Program-made: the position numbers and the translations under genes
Notes under the pieces: generated by a model
The model's database searches: none
The model's input: only the letters and a program-made list of their open reading frames with translations
What the model was told of the DNA's origin: nothing
Assembly: GCF_003334765.1 (NCBI RefSeq)
Contig: NZ_QOWT01000075.1
DNA from: Escherichia coli
GTDB taxonomy: Bacteria > Pseudomonadota > Gammaproteobacteria > Enterobacterales > Enterobacteriaceae
Strand: one strand, 5' to 3'
Length of the DNA: 1,983 nt
Part shown: one piece after another, positions 1 through 1,983 of the stretch
How the letters are laid out: the number at the start of each line of letters is the position of its first letter
How positions within the stretch are numbered: position 1 is the first letter of the stretch

Positions 1-225
1 GCTCTGTATCACTGTATTGTCTTCCGGCAACTGATGAGGGCTGGCAGAAGTCGCCGGTGTTTCGGTAGCGTCACGTTCATTCACCACGCGGAGTGAATAA
101 CCGTTTTCAGCGACTTTGTTAATCAGTTCAGCGAGCTCAATACCATCGACGTCAACGACAATGCGCCCCATGTTCAGCGCCTGCGCATTAATGCTGTCGG
201 CTTCCAGCGTCAGGGCCAGTTTCAT
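1..225 (-). CDS. yeeW: YeeW-like protein, 5' portion only (75 codons; continues beyond window start)
   Basis: Manual minus-strand translation from ATG at 225..223 gives MKLALTLEADSINAQALNMGRIVVDVDGIELAELINKVAENGYSLRVVNERDATETPATSASPHQLPEDNTVIQS with no stop up to position 1. N-terminus matches my recollection of E. coli YeeW. The ATG overlaps the toxin stop as ATGA (222..225). Possible SD GGGGG about 9 nt upstream. Not in the ORF track, presumably because it is truncated by the window edge. Confidence 0.7.
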   Translation of the reverse strand, partial: MKLALTLEADSINAQALNMGRIVVDVDGIELAELINKVAENGYSLRVVNERDATETPATSASPHQLPEDNTVIQS

Positions 226-599
226 TGTTTCGCCCCCGGATGTTTACCCAGGGTAATGTTATTTACCGTTCTGTAGTTGTCGCGTGTCATCAGGCCGGTT
301 GCCCGGCGTGCCCGGAGAATATCAATGCTGTTGATTAACTGCGACGGGGCTCCTGCGCTGAATCCCGGCTGGTCGGTACGTACCAGCGCGTATTTTTCAA
401 CGAGAAAGTTCACCGCGTCACACAGTGAAATCCCTGCCTCAATATGCTGCTCAATCACACGTTCATCAGCGAACGGTGTGTCATTCAGCGTGAGGCCATA
501 GTGCTGGTCCAGCAGTCGGGTGAGCAGTGTCTGCCAGATGGTGATGGGAGACGGGCAGCCCGATGCCTCCCGTACGTGAGTGTCGGGTAATGTATTCAT
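222..599 (-). CDS. cbtA: Type IV toxin, CbtA/YeeV/YkfI/YpjF family (inhibitor of FtsZ and MreB polymerisation)
   Basis: ORF-track protein from the internal Met: MNTLPDTHVREASGCPSPITIWQTLLTRLLDQHYGLTLNDTPFADERVIEQHIEAGISLCDAVNFLVEKYALVRTDQPGFSAGAPSQLINSIDILRARRATGLMTRDNYRTVNNITLGKHPGAKQ (125 aa), close to recalled E. coli CbtA/YkfI over most of its length. Start chosen at ATG 599..597, which sits after the antitoxin stop with a weak SD (AGAGAA); the track's 160-aa version begins at a GTG at 704 inside the antitoxin gene. Stop TGA at 222..224. Confidence 0.88.
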   Translation of the reverse strand: MNTLPDTHVREASGCPSPITIWQTLLTRLLDQHYGLTLNDTPFADERVIEQHIEAGISLCDAVNFLVEKYALVRTDQPGFSAGAPSQLINSIDILRARRATGLMTRDNYRTVNNITLGKHPGAKQ

Positions 600-645
600 C
601 TTAAGTTCTCTGTAACAGGTGGTTATAAAGGGGAGATATCCGGTG

Positions 646-1023
646 TTATACGGTGGTTGCGGGCGCTGCCGGTGTCGGATAAACAGCCAGATAAACGTAA
701 CCACAGGAGCCGAGGGTGTCGGCTTCGCAGGTCAGCCCTTTCGCATACAGTGTCACGGTATGCTGATGGCGGGGATTCAGTTCACCACTGGTGAGCATGA
801 GCTCCAGTTGTTTCATCAGCAGCGGAAAGGCCTGGTCCAGGTGGTATGCATCTGCATCGCTGAACCGGCCTCTGATACCGGCGCGGTCGGCAAGGTAATG
901 CAACCGGTTACCCTTCTGCACCAGACGTGCCCCGAAACAGGGCGTCACGGTGCAGGGCAGTCCCCACCAGAGGCGGTCGTGATTGTCGTCGGGAGGCGTT
1001 GTCCCGGGGAGTGTGTCTGACAC
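646..1023 (-). CDS. cbeA: Type IV antitoxin, CbeA/YeeU/YfjZ/YafW family
   Basis: 125-aa translation MSDTLPGTTPPDDNHDRLWWGLPCTVTPCFGARLVQKGNRLHYLADRAGIRGRFSDADAYHLDQAFPLLMKQLELMLTSGELNPRHQHTVTLYAKGLTCEADTLGSCGYVYLAVYPTPAAPATTV matches recalled YeeU/CbeA closely. Start codon is GTG (plus 1021..1023 is cac), preceded by GAGGA at 1031..1035. Stop TAA at 646..648. Lies directly upstream of the toxin, as expected for this pair. Confidence 0.88.
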   Translation of the reverse strand: MSDTLPGTTPPDDNHDRLWWGLPCTVTPCFGARLVQKGNRLHYLADRAGIRGRFSDADAYHLDQAFPLLMKQLELMLTSGELNPRHQHTVTLYAKGLTCEADTLGSCGYVYLAVYPTPAAPATTV

Positions 1024-1102: not shown

Positions 1103-1324
1103 TCAGTTCAGGGTGACGCTCATCAGCCGGACATACGGACCAAAACTGTCCTTACGGCGTTCTGCAAACACAGCCAGTACACCGGGAATATCCTGCACTT
1201 CACGGCCGGTATATGTATCCGTGCTACCGTGCCAGCGGTATTTACCGGTACAGAACGGAAAAAGACGGGATGCAGGATGCTGACGGTGAATACGCATGGC
1301 TTCACCACGGGTGATGATTTTCAT
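1103..1324 (-). CDS. yeeT: DUF987-family small protein (YeeT/YpjJ/YkfH-like), function unknown
   Basis: 73-aa translation MKIITRGEAMRIHRQHPASRLFPFCTGKYRWHGSTDTYTGREVQDIPGVLAVFAERRKDSFGPYVRLMSVTLN matches recalled E. coli YeeT. ATG at 1324..1322 with a canonical AGGAGG SD at 1334..1339 (9-nt spacer). Stop TGA at 1103..1105. Conserved position between the RadC-like gene and the antitoxin. Confidence 0.85.
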   Translation of the reverse strand: MKIITRGEAMRIHRQHPASRLFPFCTGKYRWHGSTDTYTGREVQDIPGVLAVFAERRKDSFGPYVRLMSVTLN

Positions 1325-1410: not shown

Positions 1411-1887
1411 TTAAAGCAGACCGTGTTCCGCAAAGGAGAAAACCTGGCTGCCACCGACTATCAGATGGTCCGGTACCCGGATATCAACCAGGGCCAGTGC
1501 CTGTACCAGACGCTCAGTGATAAGGCGGTCTGCCTTGCTGGGGGGGACTTCACCGGACGGGTGATTGTGCGCCAGCACCACGGCAGCGGCATTGTGGTAC
1601 AGGGCGCGTTTAATCACTTCCCGGGGATGGACTTCCGTACGGTTGATGGTGCCGGTGAAGAGGGTTTCACCGGCAATCAGCTGATTCTGGTTGTTCAGAT
1701 ACAGCACCCGGAACTCTTCACGCTCCAGTCCCGCCATGTTCAGAATCAGCCATTCCCGTGCCGCATGCGTGGAGGTGAAGGCCACGCCGGGTTCATGAAG
1801 ATGGCGGTCCAGGGTTTTCAGGGCCCGCTGAATGAGGCTGCGCTCGCCGGGTGTCATCTCTCCGGGCAGAAAGGAAAGTTGTTGCAT
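1411..1887 (-). CDS. yeeS: RadC-like JAB/JAMM-domain protein (YeeS/YfjY/YkfG family; historically mislabelled DNA repair protein RadC)
   Basis: Translation MQQLSFLPGEMTPGERSLIQRALKTLDRHLHEPGVAFTSTHAAREWLILNMAGLEREEFRVLYLNNQNQLIAGETLFTGTINRTEVHPREVIKRALYHNAAAVVLAHNHPSGEVPPSKADRLITERLVQALALVDIRVPDHLIVGGSQVFSFAEHGLL (158 aa) contains the JAMM signature H-x-H-x7-S-x2-D (HNHPSGEVPPSKAD, encoded at 1528..1569). Start set at ATG 1887..1885, which has GGAGAG 9 nt upstream; the track's longer ORF starts at ATG 1902..1900, which has no SD and abuts the upstream stop. Stop TAA at 1411..1413. Confidence 0.88.
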   Translation of the reverse strand: MQQLSFLPGEMTPGERSLIQRALKTLDRHLHEPGVAFTSTHAAREWLILNMAGLEREEFRVLYLNNQNQLIAGETLFTGTINRTEVHPREVIKRALYHNAAAVVLAHNHPSGEVPPSKADRLITERLVQALALVDIRVPDHLIVGGSQVFSFAEHGLL

Positions 1888-1894
1888 TGTGCTT

Positions 1895-1900
1895 CTCTCC
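1895..1900 (-). promoter_or_regulatory. Shine-Dalgarno GGAGAG for the RadC-like gene, lying within the first-ATG codons
   Basis: Minus strand reads TGA ATG GAG AGA AGC ACA ATG; GGAGAG sits 9 nt upstream of the ATG at 1887. Confidence 0.55.
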
Positions 1901-1902
1901 AT

Positions 1903-1983
1903 TCAATCGATGATGCGCATAATGGCGCTGCATTCCGGATGCTGCAGGGCGTAATCCCGCAGCCGGTAATAATGGACCGTCAT
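1903..1983 (-). CDS. 3' end of upstream gene (26 codons plus stop); possibly a KlcA/ArdB-family antirestriction protein (YfjX/YafX-like) by synteny
   Basis: Minus-strand frame reads ...MTVHYYRLRDYALQHPECSAIMRIID then TGA at 1905..1903, with no internal stop back to the window edge. In CP4-57 and CP4-6 type cassettes the gene immediately upstream of the RadC-like gene is an antirestriction protein, but in CP4-44 it is yeeR, so the product is uncertain. Confidence is for a real coding 3' end, not for the product. Confidence 0.5.
   Translation of the reverse strand: MTVHYYRLRDYALQHPECSAIMRIID

Follow-up and report, generated by a model that had tools for sequence, protein, structure and literature searches.

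An island-borne, YeeS-type RadC-family protein of Escherichia coli carries a complete JAMM motif and is a predicted zinc-dependent hydrolase

Introduction

The closest relatives of the protein described here are encoded at three paralogous loci of E. coli K-12, YeeS (b2002) on the cryptic prophage CP4-44, YkfG on CP4-6 and LfgB (YfjY, b2644) on CP4-57. LfgB was reported to break down the antitoxin/regulator MqsA, and also alpha-casein, in vitro; it reportedly protects cells against H2O2, acid and heat, and the deletion phenotype was complemented (PMC10846083). K-12 RefSeq names it 'CP4-57 prophage protease'. The evidence for its protease activity is nevertheless weak, because the assays relied on overnight incubations of a poorly soluble protein, contaminating proteases were, in the view of its authors, not strictly excludable, and the main text contains neither an active-site mutant nor a chelator control (PMC10846083). 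The CP4-57 copy was described as belonging to a yfjXY-ypjJ-yfjZF operon (PMC10846083), and co-expression of upstream genes left the toxicity of the linked CbtA-type toxins unchanged (PMC5371832). Two further relatives are the chromosomal RadC/YicR protein (UPF0758), which has a JAB domain of the same kind in its C-terminal part, and the RadC homologue of Chlorobium tepidum, 2QLC, a structural-genomics entry (36-38% identity to our protein) to which we found no function attached in database and literature searches.

RadC was named in 2003 as a JAMM-motif protein with function unknown, in a study of the archetypal AfJAMM that defined the motif as E-x(n)-H-S/T-H-x7-S-x2-D and allowed that Asn may stand for the inter-histidine Ser/Thr in distant relatives (PMC300881). 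In AfJAMM, zinc is bound by H67, H69 and D80, the catalytic water is held by E22, and S77 is next to the oxyanion hole. E22 is a strand residue, both histidines belong to strand beta4 and helix alpha2 contributes D80; the protein was inactive on the substrates tested (PMC300881). A first-pass annotation of the DNA studied here, made from the letters alone, recognised a complete JAMM signature in a RadC-like gene, predicted a catalytically competent protein and remarked that peptidase and nuclease roles had both been proposed for such proteins, and both hypotheses are indeed to be found in the literature. In the present study, this gene and its product were compared with the systems above.

Results

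The window, by which we mean the whole 1,983-nucleotide stretch of E. coli DNA under analysis, is 100% identical over its entire length to several E. coli chromosomes, including that of strain 042, where RefSeq lists the same CDS as "radC: RadC family protein" (WP_001388380.1; 16411-16887 of L001, the 042 island locus). Of 5426 complete E. coli genomes, 4942 contain related sequence, with a median of three sites per genome. The window has five genes, complete or partial, all on the minus strand; they are given below with the basis of each assignment.

222..599, minus strand: cbtA-family toxin gene (annotation)
646..1023, minus strand: cbeA, type IV antitoxin gene (annotation)
1103..1324, minus strand: downstream DUF987 gene of YeeT/YkfH/YpjJ type, 73 aa (annotation, PHROG 14887)
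1411..1887, minus strand: radC CDS, RadC family (YeeS-type), 158 aa plus stop codon at 1413..1411 (ORF list, RefSeq, YeeS identity)
1897..1900, minus strand: GGAG, Shine-Dalgarno-like, 9 nt ahead of the ATG at 1887 (read from the sequence)
1903..1983, minus strand: antirestriction gene upstream (3' part), ending 15 nt ahead of the start of radC (RefSeq; L001 16903-17376)

The ATG at 1887, with its GGAG, is the start used by RefSeq and by the K-12 paralogues, and the CDS is enclosed in a longer minus-strand open reading frame, 1902..1411. The in-frame ATG that opens this frame (1902..1900, minus strand) abuts the TGA (1905..1903) of the upstream antirestriction gene, an arrangement that allows either a 163-aa form or translational coupling.

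The encoded protein is 97% identical to YeeS, 82% to YkfG and 72% to YfjY/LfgB, and the window gene is an orthologue of E. coli K-12 yeeS. YeeS aligns over 148 aa and its annotated start lies 10 codons later than that of the window protein; T, G and N of YeeS are replaced by P115, A130 and S147 in the window protein, and the motif differs by one spacer residue. The yeeS locus has the same downstream neighbours (DUF987/yeeT, cbeA, cbtA and a yeeW-like gene), whereas its upstream gene is yeeR in place of the antirestriction gene of the window. The LfgB locus keeps the order antirestriction (lfgA/yfjX), radC-like, DUF987 (ypjJ), antitoxin, toxin, and every JAMM residue of LfgB is identical, but LfgB is a paralogue, not an orthologue, and it is for LfgB that MqsA cleavage and stress phenotypes were reported (PMC10846083).

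A DUF987 gene neighbours the radC-like gene at all three K-12 loci, and the order (antirestriction)-radC-DUF987-cbeA-like-cbtA-like is common to 042, the three K-12 loci and one E. coli plasmid. The 042 island further carries Ag43, DUF932, DUF905 and DUF4942 genes and an integrase remnant beside cadC. Within the window, the CbeA/CbtA-family type IV toxin-antitoxin pair is complete (222-1023, minus strand), its genes standing 46 nt apart; the start of a DUF5983 (yeeW-like) gene at 28-225 (minus strand), which the annotation calls a truncated pseudogene, shares 4 nt with the stop of cbtA. Antisense to cbeA lies an unannotated ORF of 133 aa (619-1020, plus strand), probably a by-product of coding-strand composition. 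An Rfam scan of the window gave no match.

Intergenic gaps are short along the minus-strand gene row. A promoter scan of the window returned no minus-strand promoter and a terminator scan no minus-strand terminator-like site between genes, the two minus-strand terminator-like matches lying inside cbtA and inside the DUF5983 pseudogene; this outcome fits an operon weakly. The radC-like gene probably shares one transcript with the antirestriction, DUF987 and CbeA/CbtA genes.

The profile search suggested by the first-pass annotation placed the protein in the Pfam RadC-like JAB family (PF04002, E=4.1e-44, model positions 2-121 of 121), with a weak direct match to Prok-JAB (PF14464, E=8.9e-4, residues 56-132). 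The subfamily cutoff of TIGR00608 was passed (147.8 bits against a curated 133.85), while the score against NF000642, the NCBIfam equivalog of YicR type, was 158.8 bits, below its cutoff of 180, and covered only model positions 88-211. Both models were matched solely through their C-terminal halves, which indicates that the protein lacks the N-terminal, HhH-bearing domain found in chromosomal RadC; a Pfam search of the window protein likewise gave no match to UPF0758_N, a domain present in just 2 of 89 close homologues. Assignment to the housekeeping radC/yicR group was thus rejected, on the equivalog cutoff and the missing HhH domain. The protein is a stand-alone RadC-type JAB/MPN+ domain borne by CP4-type integrative islands, a short mobile-element form unlike full-length RadC/YicR, and is divided as follows.

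1777..1887, minus strand: short N-terminal region, residues 1-37, replacing the HhH/UPF0758_N part of full-length RadC/YicR
1417..1776, minus strand: RadC-like JAB (MPN+) domain, residues 38-157
1717..1719, minus strand: codon of E57, predicted general base holding the catalytic water (invariance, strand start in the model, kept in 2QLC)
1528..1569, minus strand: JAMM motif HNHPSGEVPPSKAD, with predicted zinc ligands H107, H109 and D120 and predicted oxyanion-stabilising S117 (translation, invariance, AfJAMM alignment)

The family is very large, and a cutoff of E<=0.001 yields 40,315 cluster representatives (clusters counted at 50% identity), against 20,848 at E<=1e-10. Among solved structures, a sequence search matched 2QLC (E=6e-25), and a profile of 89 RadC sequences run against PDB sequences reached 2QLC only and no JAMM enzyme; the link to JAMM enzymes was therefore made by fold comparison and by direct comparison with AfJAMM. 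Identity to AfJAMM (1R5X), PfJAMM1 (5LD9), Rpn11, Csn5, AMSH, BRCC36, Cap3 and BilC is only 9-20%.

Minus-strand translation of 1528-1569 gave exactly the peptide HNHPSGEVPPSKAD of the first-pass annotation, and the fit to H-x-H-x7-S-x2-D that it had claimed falls on H107, H109, S117 and D120. The window, read in all six frames, contains this pattern once, and only 90 of 200,000 shuffled versions of the protein contained it; a chance origin is ruled out because of homology (PF04002, E=4.1e-44; 2QLC, E=6e-25). Together with the upstream glutamate, the complete E-x(n)-H-x-H-x7-S-x2-D motif of the published definition (PMC300881) is present as E57 ... H107-N-H109-x7-S117-x2-D120. The "conserved glutamates upstream" of the earlier annotation are there as E55, E57 and E58 in 'LEREEF', but E57 alone is invariant among 89 homologues.

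Misalignment of the histidine, serine and aspartate residues with the catalytic positions of JAMM enzymes had been named as the observation that would overturn the motif. With a RadC-type profile (A2) as hhalign query, and an AfJAMM sequence checked to be identical to 1oi0_A/1r5x_A, the local alignment (E=4.4e-4) instead pairs H107 with H67, H109 with H69, S117 with S77 and D120 with D80, and also H141 with H91. Extended and global alignments had near-zero confidence upstream of HxH, and E57 is the presumed counterpart of AfJAMM E22 on account of its invariance and its place as first residue of a core strand. A comparison with human PSMD14/Rpn11 (sequence verified) was discarded, since hhalign returned a meaningless alignment with a probability of 0.06.

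Conservation was assessed at two depths. H.H.{7}S..D was found in 241 of the 260 fetched homologues, the other 19 being fragments, frameshift products or chimeras. Among 89 homologues sharing 43-82% identity, E57, F59, G79, R89, H107, H109, S117, D120, D140 and H141 do not vary, and the window protein has the whole family signature HNHPSG-x3-PS-x2-D together with the Glu upstream of it and the DH pair on its C-terminal side. Comparisons of the window gene with its K-12 paralogues gave dN/dS values of 0.08-0.15 and dS values reaching 1.3. A complete JAMM site in a protein that is not a degenerate relic, as first proposed, is supported by the invariant catalytic residues and by this purifying selection, and the reading of the gene as a decaying relic was rejected on the same grounds. 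An intact motif is the family norm and is not distinctive of the window copy; RefSeq, Pfam and UniProt already record the gene together with its family and JAMM motif.

Three of the invariant residues lie outside the canonical JAMM motif, namely R89 (1621-1623), D140 (1468-1470) and H141 (1465-1467), all on the minus strand. At P115 (1543-1545, minus strand), the spacer reads EVPPSKAD, whereas nearly all E. coli clusters have EVTPSKAD (113 against 1); the position is variable across the family and we infer no functional effect.

AlphaFold2 gave a confident model of the protein from the 89-sequence alignment (pLDDT 90.4, pTM 0.82). It has the MPN (deaminase-like) fold and is folded like 2QLC, the family member of solved structure, with one predicted helix (13-30) in the N-terminal region. 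The model places E57 first in strand 57-64, ends strand 102-108 with HxH and has S117/D120 at the head of helix 118-132, a predicted layout that matches that of AfJAMM.

Homologues turned up in 2331 plasmid records, of which 1650 are typed as conjugative. On the pOXA-48-type IncL/M plasmid NZ_CP071260.1 (L007 5433-11376), a 59%-identical JAB gene is accompanied by DUF3085, HTH, DGQHR, DUF4942 and Hha genes; genes for DUF4942 and Hha also occur on the E. coli 042 island (L001 13876-14718 and 30588-30800). These occurrences suggest a gene set common to CP4-type islands and conjugative plasmids. Distant homologues in metagenomes sit on contigs of 1-3 kb with uninformative contexts. On one 3.1-kb metagenomic contig (L005), a short RadC homologue of 48% identity (936-1466) is separated by ~700 bp from a divergent SSB gene (2159-2602), a neighbour that, on this one short contig, would fit a context of ssDNA entry.

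Discussion

The window protein is very probably a zinc-dependent hydrolase of some kind, working by the canonical JAMM mechanism. By analogy with AfJAMM and with Csn5 mutants, H107, H109 and D120 would hold one Zn2+, E57 would position and deprotonate the metal-bound water and S117 would stabilise the tetrahedral intermediate, a site that would make the protein an active metallohydrolase. To our knowledge, all characterised JAMM enzymes are (iso)peptidases. Peptide-bond hydrolysis of a protein target, the activity reported for the 72%-identical LfgB on MqsA, is the most likely chemistry, and on balance a probable one.

The structural neighbours are metalloproteases and not nucleases, both in our fold comparison and in a 2025 review. 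The main competing proposal is that the same metal site processes nucleic acid. The protein would then be a nuclease or DNA-end-processing enzyme acting on island or host DNA, for example on ssDNA during transfer or establishment, alongside the antirestriction protein. Several observations point that way. RadC-type JAB domains are fused to HhH, ArdC-N, DnaG-type primase and DinG/Rad3 helicase domains, occupy the position that a 3'-5' exonuclease takes in sister helicases and have been argued to be without a ubiquitin-tail groove (Iyer et al. 2011, 2017; PMC3239186, PMC5512222). Proteins of the deaminase-like fold mostly act on nucleotides, and cytidine and DNA deaminases are among the weaker fold matches; PHROGs assigns the category DNA, RNA and nucleotide metabolism. 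The plasmid distribution described above and the adjoining antirestriction gene are in keeping with action on DNA, and the DNA damage on YicR overproduction and the mutator phenotype on YfjY overproduction (the latter as cited in PMC10846083) are explained more easily by it. Overall, we consider nucleic acid processing unlikely, while taking it as the foremost alternative to peptide-bond hydrolysis.

A role that is chiefly non-catalytic could also be envisaged, in which the protein, with its site preserved, binds or regulates, for instance, the DUF987 protein or the CbeA/CbtA module. Many MPN-fold proteins are scaffolds, and Rpn8, CSN6, Abraxas and eIF3f/h are among the fold matches obtained here; these, however, have lost the JAMM residues, whereas in the present protein all five are invariant and under strong purifying selection. 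A DUF987 gene follows every enterobacterial copy, and an AlphaFold3 complex has been predicted between a plasmid RadC and the neighbouring DUF3085 protein (PMC12826799). DUF987 and DUF3085 show no similarity to one another, and a shared partner family was rejected at the sequence level, while the toxicity of the linked toxins, unchanged on co-expression of upstream genes (PMC5371832), is a further point against regulation of that module. A mainly non-catalytic role is accordingly given a low probability.

About as low do we place a counter-defence (iso)peptidase of the mobile element, one stripping ubiquitin-like or CD-NTase conjugates of Bil, Bub or CBASS-Cap2 type systems or cleaving another host immunity protein at element entry or induction, since the protein resembles Cap3, BilC and BubCD no more closely than it resembles any other JAMM enzyme, RadC-type domains are said to be without a Ubl-tail groove (Iyer et al.), the PADLOC defence models gave no match, RadC goes unmentioned in a plasmid leading-region study and in an anti-defence annotation survey, and the E. 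coli 042 annotation has no Ubl or E1/E2 gene nearby.

Peptide-bond hydrolysis by the RadC-type domain remains the preferred reading, and protein against nucleic acid hydrolysis is the real question for domains of this type; the window offers no special leverage on the substrate, and what it contributes is a YeeS-type copy confirmed as intact and under selection. As a broader and quite speculative idea, to which we attach little probability, the short HhH-less RadC-type JAB proteins of islands and conjugative plasmids may be establishment or counter-defence enzymes, with a component of host immunity, or a conjugate of protein-DNA or Ubl type, as substrate and a small lineage-specific partner. 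The substrate would be one encountered on entry of the element into a new cell, and the partners would be DUF987 here and DUF3085 on IncL/M plasmids. If this were true, R89, D140 and H141 would define a substrate pocket unlike that of the ubiquitin-type JAMM enzymes. Being intact and selected, the YeeS-type copy is a reasonable subject for mutant and biochemical work.
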